In this document: positions 1 through 25,425 of the stretch, piece by piece | Numbering within the stretch: the first letter of the stretch is position 1 | Layout of the letters: the number at the start of each line of letters is the position of its first letter | NCBI GenBank assembly: GCA_051886215.1 | Contig: JBJEXX010000111.1 | Coordinates: forward strand, 2,679 to 66,678 | DNA: 64,000 nt | Reading direction: 5' to 3' | From: Bacilli bacterium | Lineage (GTDB): Bacteria; Bacillota_I; Bacilli_A; RF39; UBA660 | Notes under the pieces: generated by a model | Told to the model about the DNA's origin: nothing | What the model saw: the letters and a program-made list of their open reading frames with translations, nothing else | Databases searched by the model: none | Program-made: the position numbers and the translations under genes

Positions 1-1
1 A

Positions 2-214
2 TTATTTCTTACCCTTTCCATCTTTTAATATTATTTTATTTTCCGCTAATTCTTCTAAAGCTCTACCTATACTTTTTTTTGATACATAATCTTTTTCAGG
101 AAGTTGTAAATGTCCTGTTTGTTGTATTTCTTTACTTCTTTTCGCAGCAATATGTACTAATCGATATTTAGAATCAACAATATTTAATAATTTATCAATT
201 GATGGATATATCAT
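2..214 (-). CDS. rpoZ: DNA-directed RNA polymerase subunit omega
   Basis: 70-aa ORF. The N-terminus MIYPSIDKLL..SKYRLVHIAAKRSKEI matches the conserved omega helix region. Confidence 0.85.
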   Translation of the reverse strand: MIYPSIDKLLNIVDSKYRLVHIAAKRSKEIQQTGHLQLPEKDYVSKKSIGRALEELAENKIILKDGKGKK

Positions 215-308
215 AATTACCCCTCCTCTATTTTAAGAATATATGCTTTTAACTTAATAATCAATACTTTACTAAAAATTAGACAATAATTTACATTAAT
301 ATTTACAC

Positions 309-334
309 AAAATAAAAAGGCCCAAATAAGGCCT
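309..334 (-). terminator. Rho-independent terminator after the coat-gene 3' segment
   Basis: On the minus strand AGGCC-ttatttg-GGCCT is followed by TTTTATTTT, starting 5 nt after the stop at 339-341. Confidence 0.55.
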
Positions 335-338
335 AATC

Positions 339-477
339 TTATCTAAATTGATTACATGATCCACATTGAATATTACTTACTACATTTTCTTCACAACATG
401 AATATTCTGGTCTATAAGTATGTCTATATATATGATGATTTATAATTCTAGTTCTGATTGGACAAACATGTCCTTGT
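339..477 (-). pseudogene. CotD-like spore coat protein, 3' (C-terminal) segment of a split gene
   Basis: 44 in-frame codons, GHVCPIRTRIINHHIYRHTYRPEYSCCEENVVSNIQCGSCNQFR*. There is no ATG/GTG/TTG start and no SD; an in-frame TAA lies 12 codons upstream of the Gly codon. The frame is continuous with ORF 7926-8159 if 7,458 bp are removed. Confidence 0.7.
473..477. repeat. Left copy of shared core CTTGT (putative att crossover region)
   Basis: This is the only k-mer of 5 or more shared by the two junctions (read by eye). It lies inside codons gg[a caa g]ga on the minus strand. Confidence 0.45.
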
Positions 478-776
478 CCTTTTTTGATATACCTAATTCT
501 TTAATATCTCCATATCTGCATCGCTGAGTTTTCCAGTTAAATCCTCTTTTTTTAATCCTAATTCAATGTATTCTCTAAAATCAGAATTTAAAACATTTTT
601 ATCAAAAACCAAAAAGATCATTTTAAAACTAATCTACAATATTTATATTATTCTAACAATATTTCAAAAGTCTATTTTTTCTTAACAACCAAAATATTTG
701 AATACTTTAGTTTAATTAACCAATCATCCGCTTTTCAGGTCCTAATGATAAACCATCAAAAGTAATTTTCTTCATA

Positions 777-1640
777 TCAAACTTCTTTATTCTCTATTAC
801 CAAATTATCTTCTACATATTCATATGATAGTGCATTGTCTTTACTTATAACAGACGCACCTAAGTTCTTTTCAATATCTTCTCTAGCCACTTTAGAAACA
901 TGACCTCCAATTTTAGCTATTTCTTTATTAGCCTTTAATCCAAATGGTTTATGTTTCTTAACTAATTCTCTAGTAGCAATTTCACTTAAATCAGTTAATG
1001 CAACTTCAATATCAGTCATGTTATCTCTCAAATTTTCTTTTCTAATATTTTTATAAAACTTATATTGTTGAGCTGTCATACCCGACCACTCTTTATATAT
1101 TTCATTAGTAAGTATCGCATAATCAACATTTTGTGTTATGCCATTCTCTTTCCAAGCGTTAGTCAATTTCTTTCTATCAAGAATTGCTTTTATTCTTATC
1201 TCAATCCACTCTAAGGTATAACCTTTAGTTAGATAATAATCTATCATTTTATCTATTCCCTTTGATGGATCAAAAACATTATCTATTTCTTCTCTACCCA
1301 GTTTTGCTAGCCATAGCTTAAATGGTTCTGCTTTAGGACTAGGTATGGACTCAATAAGTCTGAATACTCCTTCAGTATTCAATGTATCTGTCATATATTT
1401 CTTACCATCTTTTTGAGACTTTAATTTCAGTTGCACGATTTTTTCGTGCAACTCACTTCCCTCATCAATTAATCTTCTTTTTAAGTCGCTCCAATAATTT
1501 CTAGGTATCTTATTTTTTACTAATGCTGAAATTATATCGACCACACTAAAATAGTAATCTTCTTCATCATTATTCCAAACACTTCTAATTTCGTTTCCTT
1601 CAAATAATTTTGTAATTGTGTCAACTTTGTTTTGTTCCAT
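777..1640 (-). CDS. Bro-N domain protein (antirepressor/DinD-like)
   Basis: FEGNEIRSVWNNDEEDYYFSVVDIISAL is a typical Bro-N signature. The start was moved to the ATG at 1640, preceded by GGGAGGG. Confidence 0.6.
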   Translation of the reverse strand: MEQNKVDTITKLFEGNEIRSVWNNDEEDYYFSVVDIISALVKNKIPRNYWSDLKRRLIDEGSELHEKIVQLKLKSQKDGKKYMTDTLNTEGVFRLIESIPSPKAEPFKLWLAKLGREEIDNVFDPSKGIDKMIDYYLTKGYTLEWIEIRIKAILDRKKLTNAWKENGITQNVDYAILTNEIYKEWSGMTAQQYKFYKNIRKENLRDNMTDIEVALTDLSEIATRELVKKHKPFGLKANKEIAKIGGHVSKVAREDIEKNLGASVISKDNALSYEYVEDNLVIENKEV

Positions 1641-1701
1641 ATTCAACCCTCCCTTATTTAGCATTTTGTCAAAAACATTATATCAAACATTTGTTTTTAT
1701 A

Positions 1702-3261
1702 TCAATATAAAAAAGTAACTTTTATATTGATTTTTTTATTTGCAAATATTTCTATTTTATCAATTAAATTAATTATTAATTCCCTACTTGGTTCCTTCAT
1801 AGATAAAAATTTATTAATATATTCATTAATTATTTTATTTTTAGTTTCTTCATTAATATTATCATTTATACTATTATCTAATTCATTATATCTTTTTTGT
1901 TTTATATTTAGTTCCCGCTCTAATTTTTCTTTTACTCTTTCAAATTGTTCTTCAGTTATCATTTTATTTAACTTATCAATATAAATAATATCTAAATTAT
2001 CATTTATTTGTTTAATATCACTGGTAAGTATTTCTAATTCTTTTTTATTAGTAGTTTTATTTTTTTTAATTAAATTGTTTAATACAGTATTTTTGATTTT
2101 ATCCTTATCGATACAATTAAAACACATATCAGTCAAAATTTTAAGAATTACTTTTTCTAGCTTCTCATAATTATTTGAGTGAGTTGTACATAACTTTTGT
2201 TTCATATAAGTTCTATAATAATTACAAATAGTATAACATCTATTATCTTTTTTTCTTCTAGAAGTTATAGATATTCTATGACCACAATCACCACAATATA
2301 AAAGACCATCTAATAAATGTATTTCTTTCTTTTCGTTCCTTCCTACATTTTTAGGTATTCTTTTTTGAACTTCATAAAAAATATCTTTATCTATAATTGC
2401 CTCATGAGTATTTTTTACAATTATATAATCACTTTGATTATTATTTATTACTTTTTTTACTTTATAATTAACTTTACTTCTTTTATTTTGTACCATATCT
2501 CCTATATATATTCTATTAATTAAAATATCTCTTATAGTTTTTGGATGCCACTGTCCATAATTTAATTTATAATTTTTTTTCCATTCAAAGTTATAGTAAC
2601 TTGCAGGAGTTTTAATTTTTTCCTCAGTTAATCTTTTAGCAATATTAAAAAAAGATAATCCTTCTAAAGACATATTAAATATTCTTTTTACTATAATTGC
2701 TTGTTCACTATTTATTACTAAATGATTTTTGTTTTTACTATCTTTTTTATAACCAAATGGCGCTCTAGAACCTACCCACTTTCCTTCTTTTTGTTTTGCC
2801 CTTAAACTAGATTTAATTTTTTTAGAAATATCTTTGGCGTACATATCATTCATAATAGCTTTAAAAGGCGCAATATCATTATTAGAACTATCTAAGAATG
2901 TATCAATATTATCAGTAACCGCAATATATCTAACATTATGTTCTGGAAAATATTTTTCTATTAAATTTCCAGTACCAATATAGTCTCTTCCAAGTCTTGA
3001 CATATCTTTTGTAATAACCATATTTATTTTTTTTGATTCTATATCATTTAAAAGTCTCTTAAACTCAGGTCTTTCAAAATTAGTACCTGAATAACCATCA
3101 TCAATATAAATATCATAAACTTTTAAATTATTTTCTTTTACATATTGTAATAATAGACTTTTTTGATTTTTAATACTTTCACTTTCAATTTTTTTATCAT
3201 CATCTTCTCTTGATAATCTTATATAGATACCTACATTATAAATATCATGAATATCTAGCAC
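1702..3261 (-). CDS. Large serine recombinase (resolvase/invertase N-domain + recombinase domain + zinc ribbon + coiled coil)
   Basis: 519 aa. The N-terminus VGIYIRLSREDD..SIKNQ..IYIDDGYSGTNFERPEF..L carries the catalytic Ser motif. CGDCGH...C..C forms a zinc ribbon and the C-terminus is a Lys/Glu-rich coiled coil. Start codon is GTG. Confidence 0.9.
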   Translation of the reverse strand: MLDIHDIYNVGIYIRLSREDDDKKIESESIKNQKSLLLQYVKENNLKVYDIYIDDGYSGTNFERPEFKRLLNDIESKKINMVITKDMSRLGRDYIGTGNLIEKYFPEHNVRYIAVTDNIDTFLDSSNNDIAPFKAIMNDMYAKDISKKIKSSLRAKQKEGKWVGSRAPFGYKKDSKNKNHLVINSEQAIIVKRIFNMSLEGLSFFNIAKRLTEEKIKTPASYYNFEWKKNYKLNYGQWHPKTIRDILINRIYIGDMVQNKRSKVNYKVKKVINNNQSDYIIVKNTHEAIIDKDIFYEVQKRIPKNVGRNEKKEIHLLDGLLYCGDCGHRISITSRRKKDNRCYTICNYYRTYMKQKLCTTHSNNYEKLEKVILKILTDMCFNCIDKDKIKNTVLNNLIKKNKTTNKKELEILTSDIKQINDNLDIIYIDKLNKMITEEQFERVKEKLERELNIKQKRYNELDNSINDNINEETKNKIINEYINKFLSMKEPSRELIINLIDKIEIFANKKINIKVTFLY

Positions 3262-3419
3262 TATTTCTTATTATCCTTACATTTATTTGTTTTAATATGT
3301 GAAGATGATATTTCCTTTTTACTAATACTTTTTAGATAATTATTAACTTCTTTATTTAATACTTTAATAAAAATATCGTTTATATTCATATTGCCATATT
3401 CTATATTAATTTTATACAT
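3261..3419 (-). CDS. Hypothetical 52-aa basic protein, translationally coupled to the recombinase (candidate directionality factor)
   Basis: GAGGAG SD sits 10 nt before the ATG at 3419. Its TAG stop shares one base with the recombinase GTG start (TAGTG). Confidence 0.5.
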   Translation of the reverse strand: MYKINIEYGNMNINDIFIKVLNKEVNNYLKSISKKEISSSHIKTNKCKDNKK

Positions 3420-3516
3420 AAGTTATAAGCTCCTCACTTAAACTTATTAAATAAATTTATTTTTATTATTAAAAAAAATATATAAAGAAGAATATCTTCA
3501 ATATATATTTGTTATA

Positions 3517-4314
3517 TTATTTTTTTCTAATAGGAAATTGTATTTCAGTTAAATAATCATTTTCACTATCTTTATTCCAACAACCATCTATATAACATTC
3601 TCTAGCATTATCAATTATTTCATAATTATTTTCTTCAATATATTTTAAAATAATATTATAAGAATCTCTTAAATTTTCATAAGGTCCTTTATGATAAATA
3701 CATACCGCGGTAATAGGATCAGAATACATAAATTTTACTCTTTCTGTTTCTTTACCAACTTTTTCTACTGCTTGTGCATATCTAATCTTTATATCACTTT
3801 CTTTATATTCGCCATCCAAATAACTAATGTAACAATAATCTGGAACTACACATTTTAAATTTGGATTAGCTTTTGCACATTCTGTTCCTGCATTAAAAGC
3901 AAATTCTGATACTTTACCAAAATCTTCAATTATACCATCACAATAATAGATTATATAGCTTGGTATTTCTTTAATAAATATCTCATTTTTCATATTATCT
4001 CCCTCCAATAAATAATTAATTTTGGAAAGCTGTGTATTAAATAAAGCAATATTTTCTTCTATTTCTTTTTTTCTATTATTAAGTATTATTTCTACATTTT
4101 CACCATCTAAAACTTTTTTTATGTCCTTTATAGATAGTCCCATCTGTTTAAAATGAATTATCTTAGATATTTCTATTAATTGACTAGTCTCATAATATCT
4201 ATAACCGGTATTTAAATCTACATAGACAGGTTTTAATAAACCTTCTTTTTCATAATATCTAAGTGTCTTTATTGTTGTTTTAGACATACTAGAAAAATCA
4301 CCTATTTTATACAT
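3517..4314 (-). CDS. MerR-family transcriptional regulator with GyrI-like effector-binding domain
   Basis: N-terminal YKIGDFSSMSKTTIKTLRYYEKEGLL is a MerR HTH, followed by a coiled-coil linker and a ~150-aa C-terminal domain as in BmrR-type regulators. Confidence 0.8.
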   Translation of the reverse strand: MYKIGDFSSMSKTTIKTLRYYEKEGLLKPVYVDLNTGYRYYETSQLIEISKIIHFKQMGLSIKDIKKVLDGENVEIILNNRKKEIEENIALFNTQLSKINYLLEGDNMKNEIFIKEIPSYIIYYCDGIIEDFGKVSEFAFNAGTECAKANPNLKCVVPDYCYISYLDGEYKESDIKIRYAQAVEKVGKETERVKFMYSDPITAVCIYHKGPYENLRDSYNIILKYIEENNYEIIDNARECYIDGCWNKDSENDYLTEIQFPIRKK

Positions 4315-4377
4315 ATTGCGCCTCCTAAATTATTTATACAACCTACTCTAAGGGGAGAGTCAATAATTTTTTTATAA

Positions 4378-5169
4378 TTAAACTAATTCTTTTTTATTGT
4401 AACGTATTACAGTTAATACCAAAAATATAATAGATATAAAAATACTAATAAAAATAATTAATGGATTAATCGCTACTTTTTCTATAACATTTCTAATGTC
4501 CGCAAGTGTAAAAATAGAAAAATATTTTAAAAATTCAACATTTTTAGAAAGTGTAGATAAAGTTTGTAAAACATAACTAATTAAAACTAATCCTAAACTA
4601 ATTCCAAAGACTTTTTTTGTTTTATGAGTAAATGTTGATAAAAACATACAAACAAAATACATTACAACAGAAGAAAATATAGGAGTAATACTTAACAAGA
4701 TGTATTGTTTTTTATAAAAATCTCCACTCAAGGATAATCCTATAAAATTAAATATACCAAGTAATAATACTAATAATAATATATATATTAATCCTACTAC
4801 TACTTTATTAAAAATAATATTATTTCTACTGACTGGTAAACTATTTAAGTATTCAATGGTTTTATCACTTTCTTCTTTTAATAAAATTCTAGATCCTAAT
4901 ATTCCTGAATAACATCCTGTAATTAATAAAACAAATACAAAACCTTCAGTTTTTAACCATCCAAAAGCAGTATCTATTGATGAAATATCCATATTAAAAG
5001 CTTTTAACATATCTTCAGGAAATATTTTCATCATTTCATTCATCATTTCTATATTTTCACTATTACTTATGGAAGGATATATAAGAAAAACTACTAAAAA
5101 TAATCCTAATAATATTGTCAACCAAATCATAAAATTTTTAAAATTAACTTTAAGTTCTCTTTTAAACAT
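4378..5169 (-). CDS. ABC-2 type transporter permease
   Basis: 263 aa with about six hydrophobic segments, immediately downstream of the ABC ATPase. Confidence 0.7.
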   Translation of the reverse strand: MFKRELKVNFKNFMIWLTILLGLFLVVFLIYPSISNSENIEMMNEMMKIFPEDMLKAFNMDISSIDTAFGWLKTEGFVFVLLITGCYSGILGSRILLKEESDKTIEYLNSLPVSRNNIIFNKVVVGLIYILLLVLLLGIFNFIGLSLSGDFYKKQYILLSITPIFSSVVMYFVCMFLSTFTHKTKKVFGISLGLVLISYVLQTLSTLSKNVEFLKYFSIFTLADIRNVIEKVAINPLIIFISIFISIIFLVLTVIRYNKKELV

Positions 5170-5180
5170 ATTATCACCTC

Positions 5181-6044
5181 CTACTCATAATAATGTAAAA
5201 ATATATCTTCCAAAGTCGCTTCTTCAATTAATATCTTATCTATATTATACTTTGAAAGCTTTTTTATTAATTTATCTGGTAATAGTTCATTTTGAAAACG
5301 TATAGTGTCATTTTCTTGAGTAATAACACTTATTTTTAAATCTTTAATTATTTTATTTATTTCAGAAGAAGAAATAGTTACAAAAGTTAAATTTTTTTTA
5401 TGCATTTCTTCAATCGTTTCAACTTTTAATAATTTGCCATCTTTAATAATACCAACACGATCACATATTTTAGATACTTCATTTAAAATATGCGTAGAAT
5501 AAAATATGGTTGTTCCTTTTTTCTTTTCTTCTTGCAATAATTCATAAAAAACTTTCTGCATAATAGGATCTAACCCGCTTGTTGGTTCATCTAATATTAA
5601 CAGCTTAGGTTTATGCATAAAAGCAAGTACTATACCCAATTTTTTAGAATTTCCTAAAGATAAGTCTTCTATCTTTTTTGTTTCATCTAATTTAAATTTA
5701 TTAACTAATTCACATCTTCTTTTATGAATATTTTTTTTATAAAAAGATTCATGATAATCTAACATTTCTTTAACAGTTAAATCATCATATAAATGAATTT
5801 CACTAGGTAAATAACCAATAATTTCTTTTAAACAAATATTGTTTTTATTAAAAACTTGACCATTTATTAAAACTTCTCCTTCAGTTTTATTAATTAAATT
5901 CATAATTGAACGTATAGTTGTAGATTTACCCGCTCCATTTGGACCAATAAATCCAAATACTTCTCCTTCTACTAAAGATAAAGTTAAGTTTTCTACTCCT
6001 AATATCTTACCATAATATTTAGTTAAGTTTTTTATTTCTAACAT
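5181..6044 (-). CDS. ABC transporter ATP-binding protein
   Basis: Walker A GPNGAGKST, signature-like LSLGNSKK, Walker B LLILDEPTSGLD. Confidence 0.9.
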   Translation of the reverse strand: MLEIKNLTKYYGKILGVENLTLSLVEGEVFGFIGPNGAGKSTTIRSIMNLINKTEGEVLINGQVFNKNNICLKEIIGYLPSEIHLYDDLTVKEMLDYHESFYKKNIHKRRCELVNKFKLDETKKIEDLSLGNSKKLGIVLAFMHKPKLLILDEPTSGLDPIMQKVFYELLQEEKKKGTTIFYSTHILNEVSKICDRVGIIKDGKLLKVETIEEMHKKNLTFVTISSSEINKIIKDLKISVITQENDTIRFQNELLPDKLIKKLSKYNIDKILIEEATLEDIFLHYYE

Positions 6045-6207
6045 ATCTAACTCCTCACTATTTTTATATACAAACTATATATAAATTTATTATACTATAT
6101 AAATATTTTTTTGAATAAAAAAAATTTTTACCACTTATTAACTTATTTAAAAATAAACAAATTAAAATATTTTTCAACGAATTTATTCGCTACAAATATT
6201 TTAGAGT

Positions 6208-6251
6208 GTATAAAAACATCCTATGTTAATAAATTATTTTTATAGGATGTT
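6208..6251 (-). terminator. Putative terminator after the Fic gene
   Basis: 10-bp stem AACATCCTAT/ATAGGATGTT with a 17-nt loop, followed by TTTTAT on the minus strand. Confidence 0.45.
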
Positions 6252-6262
6252 TAATCTTTTTA

Positions 6263-7012
6263 TCAGTTTTCCTCTATTTCAAAATCTAATAACTCTTCAC
6301 AAGTTTTTTCATATAAATCCTGTTCATGTTTAATAGTATCAATTAAGAACATTTTATCATTTTCATATTCTTTTAATCCTCTCATATAATAAGGTTTATC
6401 ATCATCTAATACAATAAAGGGCATAATGTTATTTCTTAAACATTCTTTAAACATTATAATTCTACCAACACGACCATTTCCATCTCCAAATGGATGTATT
6501 CTTTCAAATCTAAAATGAAAATCAACTATATCTTCTAAAGTAATATTAGTTTTAGAATTATATTCATTTAATAATTCTTCTATTTCTTGTTCTACATTTT
6601 CTGGTGCAGTAGTATTAATAACATTAACTACACCTATAATATTAGGAACAACTTTAAATCCACCAACATTATATCTAGGATTTTCTTCATCACTAGTATT
6701 TCTTTTTAAAATCTTATTCATTTCAATTATCATATCTTTAGTTAAAGGTTCATCAACATTATCTAATATATAATCAAACAATTTAAAATGATTTTTAGAT
6801 TCAGTTAAATCATCTAATTTAATTAAATCATCACTTTTAGGAATAAATGAAGATGTATCAAATATTGCTTCAGTTTGTTCACTAGTTAATCTACTACCTT
6901 CAATTTTATTTGAATTATAAGCAAAATTAACTTGTGAATAATGATATATATTCCCTTTAAATTTAGATTCTTTTTGTTTAATTAATTCATTTTTAATTTT
7001 ATTTATATTCAT
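6263..7012 (-). CDS. Fic family protein (AMPylase-type, N-terminal inhibitory motif)
   Basis: Fic motif HPFGDGNGRVGR. The N-terminal SNKIEG fits the (S/T)xxxE(G/N) inhibitory helix motif. Confidence 0.9.
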   Translation of the reverse strand: MNINKIKNELIKQKESKFKGNIYHYSQVNFAYNSNKIEGSRLTSEQTEAIFDTSSFIPKSDDLIKLDDLTESKNHFKLFDYILDNVDEPLTKDMIIEMNKILKRNTSDEENPRYNVGGFKVVPNIIGVVNVINTTAPENVEQEIEELLNEYNSKTNITLEDIVDFHFRFERIHPFGDGNGRVGRIIMFKECLRNNIMPFIVLDDDKPYYMRGLKEYENDKMFLIDTIKHEQDLYEKTCEELLDFEIEEN

Positions 7013-7039
7013 AAAATCATCTACCTTTCAAATTATAAT

Positions 7040-7801
7040 TTATCTATTATTTCTAGTACATAGTTGATTTAACGGACATTCTTCACAATTCTTCTTGTTA
7101 CAAAATGAATTTCCTAACTCCCATAAATATTTATCTATATCACTTGGATTGATATTTAATTCTTTACCTACATTAATATAAGAATCAGATAATTTTGAAA
7201 TTTCACTATTTGAAAGACTGTTTACATTAATTATATTGGTTAAATAACTAATTTCAATATCATGTCTATCTATTGGAATAGAATTTACCTTTTCTTTGAA
7301 ATTGCATATATTAGAATCACTTATTATTCGTATTAGTAACCCCCCTGTTTTTTGCCCATAACCTTTAATACTTCGTATAAATTGGCTTAATCCATCAATG
7401 TTTTTAATAGTTTTTAAGTAATTTAAAATATTATCATATTTAAGTAATTCATTAGATAAATTAATCCATTTTTTAGTTGCCAAATTAGGATATCTTGGAT
7501 GAATATTATTTACAATAATATCATTCAATTCGTTTTCTTTCATTTGACTAACATATTTAGGACAAAATATACTAGGATATTTTTCATAAGTATTAATCAA
7601 GTTTTTATGATATATTTTAGAGCGCACACCATAATCTAATAAACAAGAATAAAACATATATATAAAATATTCATTTGTACCATAATTTATATTTTTTGGA
7701 AATTCTACATTTGCTAGTCTTTCTTTGTCCGCAAAATAATTATTAAGTTTTTCTATAATTTCTTTACATCTATTATAATCAATATTCAAAATTATCACCA
7801 C
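7040..7801 (-). CDS. HhH-GPD / endonuclease III-like protein with C-terminal Cys cluster
   Basis: IKGYGQKTGGLLIR is a helix-hairpin-helix-like motif followed by PIDRHD. C-terminal CNKKNCEECPLNQLC is C-x4-C-x2-C-x5-C. The start codon is uncertain (GTG at 7801 or TTG at 7789). Confidence 0.4.
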   Translation of the reverse strand: MVIILNIDYNRCKEIIEKLNNYFADKERLANVEFPKNINYGTNEYFIYMFYSCLLDYGVRSKIYHKNLINTYEKYPSIFCPKYVSQMKENELNDIIVNNIHPRYPNLATKKWINLSNELLKYDNILNYLKTIKNIDGLSQFIRSIKGYGQKTGGLLIRIISDSNICNFKEKVNSIPIDRHDIEISYLTNIINVNSLSNSEISKLSDSYINVGKELNINPSDIDKYLWELGNSFCNKKNCEECPLNQLCTRNNR

Positions 7802-7925
7802 ATTTTCAAATTAATAATTATTAATTTAATCTATACCAATTATACCATACAAAAAGACTTTTATTATCAAAATGCATTTAAATTTGTACTTATTTTCTCT
7901 TAATTATTTTGTCTATCATAAATTA

Positions 7926-8159
7926 TCACTCTTGTGGTACTTCATGATAAATATTTCTATGAACGCATCTTTCTTTCATTGGTTCAGCGATTGGTTGTAC
8001 AGGACAACCTCCACCCATAGCAGGCATATCAGCTTGGGCCATAGAACCTTCATATTCTGTATTTACTGCCATATTCATTTCATTAGTTATTTGATTATTG
8101 TCACCAAAGAAATTAGCAGTCATGTCATTATCTCTATCATAACAACGATCTTGAAACAT
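7926..8159 (-). pseudogene. CotD-like spore coat protein, 5' (N-terminal) segment of a split gene
   Basis: AGGAGG sits 8 nt before the ATG. The 77-aa product ends ..GGCPVQPIAEPMKERCVHRNIYHEVPQE*, and the stop falls 2 codons past the shared pentamer. Confidence 0.7.
7931..7935. repeat. Right copy of shared core CTTGT (putative att crossover region)
   Basis: Lies inside codons cc[a caa g]ag on the minus strand, in the same phase as the left copy. Confidence 0.45.
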
Positions 8160-8244
8160 ATTTATTTCCTCCTATCTAGTCTATCATATTCAAATATGGT
8201 ATAAATGTTATATTTGAATAGCCTAAATAAAAGAAAAAATACCA

Positions 8245-9552
8245 TTAAAATGGCATTTTCATATTTCCATTAGAAAATTGTTTCATCATTTTTTTCATTT
8301 GTTCAAATTGCGTCAATAACTTATTTACTTCTTGAACACTAGTTCCACTACCTTTAGCTATTCTAGTTTTTCTACTAGCCTTTATTATTTCAGGATTACG
8401 TCTTTCCTTAGGAGTCATAGATAAAATAATGGCCTCAATCCTATTTATCAATTTTGGATCAATATTAATATTATTAAGTCCTAATTTAGATGCTCCTGGA
8501 ATTAACTTTAACAATTTATCAAGAGGTCCAAGTTTTTTAATTTGTTTCATTTGTGATAAAAAGTCCTCTAAATCAAACTTACCACTTTTCATTTTTTTTG
8601 CAGCATTCATTGCTTCTTTTTCATCTATAACTTCTTCAGCTTTTTCTACTAAAGAAATAATGTCTCCCATTCCAAGAATTCTACCAGACATTCTTTCGGG
8701 ATCAAAGTATTCAATGCCATCTAGTTTTTCACTAACACCAATAAATTTAATTGGTACATTAGTCAAATGTCTAACAGATAAAGCGACTCCACCTCTAGTA
8801 TCTCCATCTAATTTAGTTAAAATAACACCTGTAAGTGGTAATTTATTATTAAATCCAGTAATAACATTAATTGCATCTTGTCCCATCATAGCATCAATAA
8901 CTAATAGAATTTCTTCAGGATTAACTGAATTTTTAATATTATCTAATTCATCCATTAAATTATCATCTATATGAAGTCTACCAGCTGTATCTATTAAAAC
9001 ATAATCATATCCATTGTCTTTTGCATATTTAATTGCATTCTTACTTATTTCAATAGGATTATTTTTTCCTTCATCATAAACTTCAATATTTAATTGTTTA
9101 CCAATTTGCTTTAATTGATCAATCGCTGCAGGTCTATAAACATCACAAGCAACTAATAAAGGTTTTTTAGAATTTTTCTTTCTAATTAAATTAGCAAGTT
9201 TTCCTATAGTAGTTGTCTTACCACTACCTTGAAGTCCTACCAACATACATATTGCTGGATTTCCTTTCAAATTCAGTTCTTTACTTTCTCCTCCAAGAAG
9301 TTCTGTAAGTTCATCCTTTACAATTTTAACAAAAACTTCTCCAGGTTTTAAACTAGTAGCAACTTCTTTTCCTAATGCCTTTTCTTTAACTTTAGAAGTA
9401 AACTCTTTAACTACTTGATAATTAACATCAGCTTCTAATAAAGCTAATCTAATTTCACGCATCATTTCTGAAATATTTTCTTCTGTTATTTTTCCATAAC
9501 CCTTAATCTTGTGTACTACATTTTGTAATCTATCAGATAATCCTTCAAACAT
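8245..9552 (-). CDS. ffh: Signal recognition particle protein Ffh
   Basis: MFEGLSDRLQ N-terminus, GLQGSGKTTT P-loop, DTAGR, TKLDGD, and a Met-rich C-terminal M domain. The first ATG after AGGTGA was taken as the start. Confidence 0.95.
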   Translation of the reverse strand: MFEGLSDRLQNVVHKIKGYGKITEENISEMMREIRLALLEADVNYQVVKEFTSKVKEKALGKEVATSLKPGEVFVKIVKDELTELLGGESKELNLKGNPAICMLVGLQGSGKTTTIGKLANLIRKKNSKKPLLVACDVYRPAAIDQLKQIGKQLNIEVYDEGKNNPIEISKNAIKYAKDNGYDYVLIDTAGRLHIDDNLMDELDNIKNSVNPEEILLVIDAMMGQDAINVITGFNNKLPLTGVILTKLDGDTRGGVALSVRHLTNVPIKFIGVSEKLDGIEYFDPERMSGRILGMGDIISLVEKAEEVIDEKEAMNAAKKMKSGKFDLEDFLSQMKQIKKLGPLDKLLKLIPGASKLGLNNINIDPKLINRIEAIILSMTPKERRNPEIIKASRKTRIAKGSGTSVQEVNKLLTQFEQMKKMMKQFSNGNMKMPF

Positions 9553-23949: not shown

Positions 23950-25425
23950 ATGGAAAAATATGAAATTATAAAAAATATTGCCACAAGAACTAATGGCGAC
24001 TTATATTTGGGTGTAGTTGGAGCAGTTAGAACAGGGAAATCAACTTTTATCAAAAAAATGGTTGAAACATTAATAGTGCCTAATATAAAAGATGAATATG
24101 AAAGAAAAAGATGTTTAGATGAGATACCACAAAGCGCACAAGGAAAAACAATAATGACTACAGAACCAAAATTTGTACCTAGTACGGCAGCCAAAGTACA
24201 TATAGATGAAATAGACTGCAATATAAGATTAATTGATTGTGTAGGATATATGATAGATAATGCCAAAGGTGCTGAAGATGAAAACGGTCCTAGAATGGTT
24301 AAAACACCTTGGTACGATGATGAAATACCTTTTATTGAAGCCGCAGAATTAGGTACTGAAAAAGTAATTAAAGAACACTCATCTATTGGTATTGTCATAA
24401 CAACAGATGGCTCTATTGGTGAATTTGAAAGAAATGATTATAAAGAAGCCGAACAAAGAGTCATAACAGAATTAAAAGAAATAGGAAAACCTTTCATAGT
24501 TATTTTAAATTCTACTCATCCAAATACTAAAGATACTCAGGATATAGCTATTTCATTAAGAGAAGAACATAACACTCCCGTTATACCTATGAATATAGAT
24601 ACTATGACCGAAAAAGATATGTTAAACATATTAAGAGAAGCACTGTATGAATTCCCAGTTCTAGAAGTTAATGTTAATATGCCAGAATGGATTGCTATAT
24701 TAAATCCTGAACATGAAATAAAAAAAGAATATATTAAAGCTATAAAAGAAAGTGTTATAGAAGTAGATAAGTTAAGAGATATAGAATCAATCACAGATCA
24801 TTTTAAAGATATAGATATTATTGATAGCGCATATATGTCTGATGTTAATACTTCAACTGGTGTTGTAACTATAAACTTAACATCTCCACCTAGTTTATAT
24901 AATGATGTATTAACTAATATAATCAAAATAGATGTTACTAATAAAGCTGAATTACTATCATTATTCCAAGATTATAACGAAGCAAAAACAGAATATGATC
25001 AAATAAAATATGCTTTAAAAATGGTTAAACAAACAGGATATGGTATAGCTACCCCTTCTTTAAAAGATATGAAATTAGATTCTCCAGAAATTATCAAACA
25101 AGGAACAAGATATGGAGTTAAATTAAAAGCTGTTGCACCATCTATTCATATGATTAGAGTTGATGTTAATTCTACATTTGAGCCAATCATAGGTAGTGAA
25201 ATGCAAAGTAAAGAACTAATTGATTATATGATGAAAGATTATAAAACTGATCCTCAAAATATTTGGAAAAATGAAATATTTGGAAGAAGTCTAGATTCAA
25301 TCGTTCAAGAAGGTATCCAATCAAAAATTGCTCTCATGCCAGATAATATAAGATTTAAATTACAACAAACATTAACTAAGATCGTTAATAAAGGATCAAA
25401 TAATATGATTGCTATTGTATTATAA
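23950..25425 (+). CDS. spoIVA: Stage IV sporulation protein A (spore coat morphogenetic ATPase)
   Basis: The N-terminus MEKYEIIKNIATRTNGDLYLGVVGAVRTGKSTFIKK is nearly identical to the Bacillus SpoIVA Walker A region. 491 aa. Confidence 0.97.
   Translation: MEKYEIIKNIATRTNGDLYLGVVGAVRTGKSTFIKKMVETLIVPNIKDEYERKRCLDEIPQSAQGKTIMTTEPKFVPSTAAKVHIDEIDCNIRLIDCVGYMIDNAKGAEDENGPRMVKTPWYDDEIPFIEAAELGTEKVIKEHSSIGIVITTDGSIGEFERNDYKEAEQRVITELKEIGKPFIVILNSTHPNTKDTQDIAISLREEHNTPVIPMNIDTMTEKDMLNILREALYEFPVLEVNVNMPEWIAILNPEHEIKKEYIKAIKESVIEVDKLRDIESITDHFKDIDIIDSAYMSDVNTSTGVVTINLTSPPSLYNDVLTNIIKIDVTNKAELLSLFQDYNEAKTEYDQIKYALKMVKQTGYGIATPSLKDMKLDSPEIIKQGTRYGVKLKAVAPSIHMIRVDVNSTFEPIIGSEMQSKELIDYMMKDYKTDPQNIWKNEIFGRSLDSIVQEGIQSKIALMPDNIRFKLQQTLTKIVNKGSNNMIAIVL

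Follow-up and report, generated by a model that had tools for sequence, protein, structure and literature searches.

Why would a reading frame of only 52 codons share the last base of its stop codon with the start codon of a recombinase gene? The question is raised by a stretch of 64,000 nucleotides from a Bacilli bacterium (assembly GCA_051886215.1, contig JBJEXX010000111.1, positions 2,679 to 66,678), which we call the window throughout. An integrated element in this window encodes a large serine recombinase (LSR; 519 residues, GTG start, 1702..3261) and, directly upstream of it, the small open reading frame (ORF; 52 aa, 3261..3419); the element, its attachment sites and the gene that it interrupts are all described on the minus strand. 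[quoted passage not shown] Comparison with related loci indicates that the ORF is a genuine and widely conserved small gene under purifying selection, which is translationally coupled to the LSR through overlapping stop and start codons. A role of its product as an RDF is something that we infer, with better support than position alone provides, and it is the reading to which we tentatively incline.

A conserved small gene upstream of the recombinase

The small ORF opens with an ATG at 3419-3417, continues for 52 sense codons and closes with a TAG at 3263-3261. A Shine-Dalgarno (SD) sequence, GAGGAG (3430..3435), precedes the ATG with a spacer of 10 nt, and the G at 3261 belongs both to the TAG and to the GTG of the LSR gene. 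On rereading the sequence, the original prediction turned out to be correct in every one of these details. Relatives carry AAGTGAGGTG at the place equivalent to the SD. At a G+C content of about 20-24%, where stops make up about 9% of random triplets, 52 open codons in a given frame would arise by chance with p ~0.008 by our own arithmetic; the case for the ORF as a gene is decided by conservation, not by this figure.

Relatives of the LSR number in the hundreds in uncultured, very AT-rich 'Bacilli/Tenericutes' gut genomes; 565 matching stretches were confirmed and 80 loci with 57-85% identity were kept. When loci from other species with 230 nt or more of sequence before the LSR gene were searched with a hidden Markov model of the small-protein family, 72 of 73 had a homologue immediately upstream of this gene. 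A clade whose LSR is only 57% identical still has a recognisable small protein, MVKYKVNLKFKDTGKSLNEIITEVLKIELQKK, and three distant members of the family, looked up independently, are each encoded directly upstream of an LSR gene. The pairing that the original prediction needed to see beside orthologous recombinases is thus conserved down to the most divergent LSRs in the set. Moreover, the small ORF evolves like a coding sequence. In 64 variants, the entropy at the three codon positions is 0.64/0.40/0.87, with the third position most variable; the median pairwise ratio of nonsynonymous to synonymous substitutions (dN/dS) is 0.28, and the corresponding pooled ratio of differences (pN/pS) is 0.41. 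Insertions and deletions comprise whole codons, and the frame stays open despite about 50% amino-acid divergence. The family as a whole forms 491 clusters at 90% identity and at least 170 at 50%, all of 29-95 aa. Gene callers predict members in hundreds of assemblies, where the clusters are without exception labelled 'hypothetical', none of them with a Pfam domain.

Could the frame nevertheless be open by chance, or the DNA be conserved for a non-coding role, as promoter or leader of the LSR gene for example, without a protein product? Such a suspicion is natural for a short ORF in an extremely AT-rich genome, and in the single RNA run examined (among public runs of related strains) the small ORF had zero coverage. 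It is at odds, however, with an open frame at 72 of 73 loci, whole-codon indels, third-position variability, dN/dS below 0.5, a conserved SD and the predictions of gene callers. On the strength of these comparative data we consider a chance or non-coding origin effectively refuted, and its residual likelihood as very small.

Conservation is confined to the N-terminal ~33 residues of the small protein (MDKYKINxIY..DINDIFIKVLNKELKKY), with a core at residues 1 to ~30 (MYKINIEYGNMNINDIFIKVLNKEVNNY), and the remainder varies in sequence and length to give a total of 33 to 62 aa. The product had originally been characterised as rich in Lys and Asn, and its composition bears this out (11 Lys and 9 Asn); the part that is conserved, and presumably functional, is however the N-terminal stretch of ~33 residues, with its extended segment and amphipathic helix, and not the Lys-rich tail. 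Informative in another way is L049, the only locus of the 73 in which the small gene does not directly precede the LSR. There, a gene for an 878-aa P-type ATPase has been inserted between the two (L049:763-5542); an intact small ORF is retained 3 kb from the LSR, a degenerate remnant of a small ORF lies next to the LSR, and the Fic gene found in most of the related elements is absent. Since the small ORF has stayed intact despite this separation, its retention points to a purpose beyond coupling.

Translational coupling to the recombinase

The protein encoded downstream has the composition of an LSR: the domains Resolvase (PF00239), Recombinase (PF07508) and Zn_ribbon_recom (PF13408) all score above their cut-offs, the zinc ribbon contains a coiled-coil insert, and the catalytic motif reads GIYIRLSREDD. 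Its closest relative among solved structures is the catalytic domain of TnpX. The GTG is the sole canonical start codon open to the LSR of the window. Across 63 variants, the stop codon of the small ORF overlaps the LSR start codon in 54, mostly as AATTGTTAG or NTGA, and lies within 6 nt of it in seven more. The LSR start codon is a weak TTG in 48 of 62 variants, and most LSR genes carry a strong GGAGG of their own. Joint translation of the pair had been proposed from the shared base in the window; the conservation of the overlap itself now indicates that the small gene and the LSR gene are translationally coupled.

A fusion of the two products by programmed frameshifting was considered and rejected. 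In the window a TAA closes the LSR frame 9 nt before the GTG, and in the common type of relative a TAA does so 6 nt before the TTG; with its frame closed upstream, the LSR must be a protein separate from the product of the small ORF.

Many relatives have the potential to form a long hairpin in which the 3' end of the small ORF pairs with LSR codons 3-12 and encloses the SD and start codon of the LSR (e.g., L001:3301-3385). The arms of this hairpin differ by clade (ATCTCT/AGAGAG in one, ATTCCC/GGGAAT in another). By per-sequence z-scores, no more than 12 of 67 loci have a thermodynamically significant hairpin (z < -2), the arms are mismatched in several, and the window has no significant hairpin at 3217-3310 (z = +0.2 to +0.6). 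RNAalifold returned no consensus structure for 36 sequences, because the arms sit in different registers across clades. We therefore treat the hairpin as a feature of a subset of loci and not of the family in general.

A second imperfect inverted repeat, with a putative function, surrounds the SD of the small ORF itself (3405..3460; core AUAAGUU / AACUUAU), and its 3' arm reaches into the AUG. In relatives, the corresponding 14-nt arms, TTATCCATAAGTTT and AAATTTATGGATAA, are complementary across the small-ORF start codon and leave the SD in the loop. Most relatives also possess a perfect 13-nt inverted repeat, AGTAATACTAAAT-N25-ATTTAGTATTACT, upstream of the operon of small gene and LSR (e.g., L042:3722-3772), which may be an operator. 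The sequence CATAA[AG]TT is found upstream of the small ORF in 52 of 63 variants. As it persists where the complementarity of the arms is lost, it may also serve as the -10 element of a mother-cell sigma factor; the motif CATAAGTTT, about 30 nt before the small-ORF ATG, could be such a mother-cell-type -10 element. Scans for sigma-70 promoters yielded fewer sites than shuffled sequence, and no Rfam family matched within window positions 1-9000.

An element in a probable spore-coat gene

Where does the pair reside? The element body comprises 7.46 kb (471..7932) between attL and attR and splits a Cys/His-rich gene for a product of 114-122 aa. The 5' part of this gene (7935..8159) lies within a 77-aa ORF (7926-8159), and the 3' part (339..470) encodes HVCPIRTRIINHHIYRHTYRPEYSCCEEN...NQFR followed by a stop codon. 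The halves are 7.4 kb apart in the window genome; when joined, they correspond to a single uninterrupted gene (100-122 aa) that 24 of 41 related genomes possess. The joint at a CA core reads ..HEVPHVCPI.., a layout identical to that of the intact genes of at least ten relatives. The element is inserted in frame, and its precise excision would restore the frame of the interrupted gene.

At attL, the crossover core CA (7933..7934) directly follows the ..HEVP codon of the split gene and is continued by the element arm AAGAGTGATAATTTATGATAGAC; at attR, the core CA (469..470) has the element arm GTATATCAAAAAAGGACAAGGA before it and the 3' part of the gene, TGTTTGTCC, after it. Empty sites in ten relatives, ..CATGAAGTACCA-CA-TGTTTGTCCAAT.. 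(..HEVPHVCPI..), define attB, the joint sequence of which is GTACCACATGTTTGTCC. Occupied sites read ..GTACCA-CA-AG(A/T)GTGATAATTTATGATAGAC.. at attL and ..GTCTATCAAAAAAGGGCAAGGA-CA-TGT.. at attR. The two element arms, which would be joined in attP, form an imperfect inverted repeat (GTCTATCA(A/T)AAA...), as expected of the attP of an LSR. A longer core, CAAG, would give ..HEVPQGHVCP.. and was rejected in favour of an ACA/CA core, since empty sites read ..HEVPHVCP... In public runs of related strains, for which assembler contigs were available, neither an attB nor an attP joint was listed.

All 80 loci share the identical codon position of insertion, between ..HEVP and HVCPI.., in a Cys/His-rich gene located between ffh and rpoZ. 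Their common gene order starts with ffh and a small ORF, in most cases continues with Fic, and ends with the small gene, the LSR gene and rpoZ. Elements of the family span 3-8 kb, and in the smaller ones the LSR stop codon is only ~15-35 nt from attR. Together with the absence of Fic in L049, this implies that the invariant core of the family consists of the small gene and the LSR. Both in the window and in 72 of 73 related elements, the small gene is carried between attL and attR, immediately before its LSR gene. The Fic protein (window 6263-7012; compared across L001-L070) is 88-96% identical between species as opposed to 66-82% for the neighbouring ffh, which suggests that the element cassette has recently spread horizontally among genera.

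The interrupted gene has no match in Pfam or NCBIfam, the CotD models included. By its His/Cys-rich repeat it might be called 'CotD-like'. In most species (region equivalent to window 8160-8230, about 50 loci), some 12 nt separate CATANNNTA from the downstream SD of this gene; in Bacillus subtilis, CATANNNTA is the consensus of the sigmaK -10 element. The window has AATATGATA at this position. In one relative, the intact target gene follows cotJB and cotJC. The genome from which the window derives measures 1.19 Mb with about 24% G+C; it encodes Spo0A (137 bits, elsewhere in the genome) and SpoIVA (360 bits; window ~23950-24657, G000:C111:26628-27335), and SpoIIID was not found in this assembly, which is only 83% complete. 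By its gene content, this small genome appears to belong to a spore-former, and the interrupted gene is a probable spore-coat gene. A reading of the element as akin to skin or gin is accordingly reasonable but unproven.

Structure and relatives of the small protein

AlphaFold2 predicts a single helix from each of two alignments (residues 13-37 and 16-42). The predicted local distance difference test (pLDDT) score is ~90 over about 20 residues (~11-30), the N-terminal segment is modelled as extended and the tail as disordered, and the helix is predicted to be amphipathic. A confident helix with flexible ends, as in these models, is what one typically sees in peptides that adopt their fold upon binding a partner.

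Searches of sequence databases were uninformative as to function. Scans of the small ORF and 35 homologues with Pfam and NCBIfam gave scattered chance matches only, and the excisionase and helix-turn-helix (Xis-type) models in these collections had no match at a meaningful E-value. A profile search of all PDB sequences, among them those of the SPbeta integrase-RDF complexes, retrieved no match to the small protein, and tblastn with a typical family member found none in 50,697 phage and 72,556 plasmid records. RDFs had been described as unrecognisable by sequence when this candidate was put forward; the small protein, without a match in Pfam, NCBIfam or PDB, conforms to that description, next to a weak resemblance to TnpW at the level of profiles.

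TnpW (Pfam PF14202, gathering score 25 bits), a protein of elements of the Tn4451/Tn4453 type, is similar to the small protein in several respects. It measures 50-90 aa, shows a helix after a strand-like segment (..TYxVxVHFSxxxKETxxDKIxRLIxxE..) and is encoded beside, and often directly upstream of, a TnpX-like LSR; TnpX is the closest solved structure for the LSR studied here. It differs in that the small-protein family lacks the first strand (..IGxT..), has a loop shorter by two residues and is beyond the reach of the Pfam model. PF14202 matched none of 36 family members at E <= 10 and did not match the small ORF in a six-frame search of the window genome and its relatives; conversely, the small-protein profile found nothing in a single TnpW sequence. 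Comparing alignments with hhalign gave P = 0.003 and a score of 19.4 at a probability of only 10.5%, with KYKINxIY--xxINDIFIKVLxKELKK placed against TYxVxVHFSETSKETMxDKIKRLIxKE. None of 200 column-shuffled controls reached 19.4 (maximum 14.7), a lenient control in that shuffling destroys the periodicity of strand and helix. Another TnpW aligned in the same register (P = 0.011, probability 3.8%), and this register was consistent with two tools. Of 24 loci examined, at least seven (L107, L110, L111, L114, L119, L123 and L126) have a TnpW gene just upstream of a TnpX-like LSR gene and oriented like it. An arrangement in which a small gene precedes an LSR gene is therefore wider than the small-protein family described here. 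The distance from TnpW to LSR in other Bacilli is 130-700 nt (L107, L110, L114, L119, L123 and L126).

Other contents of the element

In the direction of transcription, the element encodes a 253-aa protein resembling HhH/Fe-S proteins, Fic, an ABC ATPase, an ABC-2 permease, a MerR/GyrI-like regulator, the small protein, the LSR and a Bro-N protein (471..7932). The 253-aa protein at the attL end (window 7040-7801) has no Pfam match; it shows faint matches to N-glycosylases of the MutY type and a C-terminal cysteine cluster, C-x4-C-x2-C-x5-C. At the other end, the Bro-N segment (window 490-1723) is exchanged for a different stretch of 756 nt in metagenome contigs of closely related strains (runs X2 and X3), and the cargo downstream of the LSR thus varies between strains.

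A candidate directionality factor

How might the small protein act on its recombinase? We tentatively favour a reading, which we would put just short of an even chance, whereby it is a dedicated partner of the adjacent TnpX-like LSR and works as an RDF. In this scenario, the extended N-terminal segment and the amphipathic helix would dock on the zinc-ribbon DNA-binding domain 2 (DBD2) of the LSR at the base of the coiled coil, and docking would shift the LSR from integration to the excision reaction between attL and attR. Because both proteins come from one message, a cell in which this message is switched on would be committed to excision. The switch would probably be a mother-cell sigma factor during sporulation, and excision would rebuild the interrupted, putative spore-coat gene. 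We favour this reading because the small gene is invariably paired with the LSR, because excision needs to be precise, and because of the existence of proven tiny RDFs, the literature on DBD2 and the outcome of a partial Mantel test. The setting is one that favours a need for excision, as relatives have an unbroken version of the gene interrupted by the element. In the Mantel test, the small-protein core co-varies with the half of the LSR that comprises the zinc ribbon, the coiled coil and the C-terminus (r = 0.39, p = 0.001, with the rest controlled), and neither with the catalytic domain (r = 0.06, p = 0.25) nor with DNA-binding domain 1 (DBD1; r = -0.01, p = 0.55), both of which are nearer to the small gene on the DNA than the co-varying half.

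SprB, the RDF of the SPbeta recombinase SprA, has 58 residues. Two other RDFs have been proven experimentally for LSRs of elements that intervene in sporulation genes, namely GirX with 42 aa (PMC5595907) and CD1234 with 72 aa (PMC5025042). A common fold is lacking among known RDFs, but DBD2, at its junction with the coiled coil, is the place where all of them bind, and they are hard to find for want of conserved sequence or synteny (PMC12286644). A close parallel is offered by GirX and its recombinase GirC, encoded in Bacillus cereus ATCC 10987 by gin, an element in gerE: there, much as is proposed here, a non-phage element splits a late mother-cell gene, and excision by an LSR involves a tiny, motif-less cofactor that is conserved only within the element family and is expressed together with the recombinase during sporulation (PMC5595907). 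The systems differ in that no sequence similarity between GirX and the small protein was detected, that gin is 28.6 kb long with three recombinases as against 3-8 kb with one, and that the activity of GirX is proven in vitro, whereas the small protein is known from sequence. It was by mapping deletions across six genes that GirX was identified, and no translational coupling between it and girC is described (PMC5595907). Similarly, CD1234 with CD1231 (skin(Cd) in sigK of Clostridioides difficile; PMC5025042) and SprB with SprA (SPbeta; PMC5499854) are pairs in which a small protein, encoded inside the element that splits a sporulation gene, binds the LSR and permits excision. The 14-nt leader of CD1234 behind a mother-cell promoter (PMC5025042) is reminiscent of CATAAGTTT in front of the small-ORF ATG. 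In both of these systems, however, the RDF is on its own transcript and the LSR is constitutive, in contrast to the overlapping reading frames found here, and again no sequence similarity to the small protein was found. For CD1234, separate transcription under sigmaE and SpoIIID constitutes the regulated step (PMC5025042). If the small protein is indeed an RDF, it would join a known functional class, in which strict synteny with the recombinase and translational coupling to it would be its unusual traits.

Several considerations weigh against a role as RDF. Obligatory co-translation with the recombinase would be unusual, given that the characterised RDFs of sporulation elements are the separately regulated component. 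An RDF made in a 1:1 ratio should, moreover, prevent integration in the manner of GirX (PMC5595907), which would fit badly with the signs of horizontal spread. The Mantel test is weak, inasmuch as sequences related by a tree inflate it and fast-evolving domains carry more signal; part of its outcome may stem from similar fast rates (mean distance 0.43 for the coiled coil compared to 0.14 for the catalytic domain). At 3420-3516, the window lacks the 13-nt inverted repeat, apparently because the MerR-ABC cargo inserted there, and has AATAAG in place of the CATAAG of its relatives. The possible kinship with TnpW, suggestive but sub-threshold as it is, points in the same direction. The tnpW gene is not known to be needed for the excision and movement of Tn4451, and TnpX and TndX, the nearest characterised LSRs, are not known to require any RDF for either excision or integration.

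Alternatively, the peptide might be secondary and the ORF mainly a translational leader, on which finishing ribosomes re-initiate at, or unmask, the weak TTG or GTG of the LSR gene, so that initiation on the small ORF sets the output of LSR. The conserved overlap and the prevalence of TTG would be well explained in this manner, as would the hairpin that encloses the LSR start in many relatives and is rebuilt from different sequences by clade, and the second inverted repeat around the small ORF's own SD and start. A pure leader, however, has no need of an N-terminal core conserved at the amino-acid level, with dN/dS of ~0.3 and beside LSRs down to 57% identity, nor of an ORF kept intact 3 kb from the LSR as in L049. 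Most LSR genes possess a strong GGAGG of their own, and the hairpin is significant at a minority of loci, mismatched at several and absent from the window. We thus regard a mainly leader-like function as rather improbable.

A somewhat better, if still unlikely, contender is a TnpW-like accessory with a role other than directionality, be it a repressor or anti-activator of the operon, an architectural helper at att sites, or an inhibitor that restrains the LSR until a signal arrives. Here, the profile-profile similarity in a consistent register and above all 200 shuffles, the synteny of TnpW with TnpX-like LSRs, the TnpX structure as best PDB match of the LSR, with TnpX itself not known to need an RDF, and the possible operators upstream of the operon in most relatives would all fall into place. 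On the other side of the balance, the Pfam model detects no member of the family, hhalign probabilities are 4-11% and the shuffled control is a lenient one. A core of ~33 aa with a single helix would make a poor candidate for sequence-specific DNA binding, and in the window the ORF is retained even though the upstream repeat is gone. Since literature searches returned no assigned function for TnpW, this explanation names a relative rather than a mechanism. The RDF reading and kinship with TnpW might also be reconciled. It is conceivable, though we would not expect it, that the small-protein family and TnpW are two branches of an old superfamily of partners of TnpX-like LSRs: they would be directionality subunits built in at a fixed ratio by coupling, and direction would be set by the choice of promoter or transcript, with a long message for excision and an LSR-only message for integration, rather than by a separately regulated RDF. 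If this were true, TnpW would gain a function.

Implications

RDFs are a bottleneck in turning serine integrases into reversible tools for genome engineering. A candidate with strict synteny would allow dozens of natural pairs of LSR and partner to be read directly from metagenomes, together with defined attB, attL and attR sites. Should the weak link to TnpW hold, it would hint at what this family does, one that is frequent among mobile elements of Firmicutes and has been without a function since Tn4451 was described. And if the small protein does direct excision, the element would represent a miniature switch of the skin or gin kind, operating in a gut lineage of spore-formers whose genome measures a mere ~1.2 Mb.

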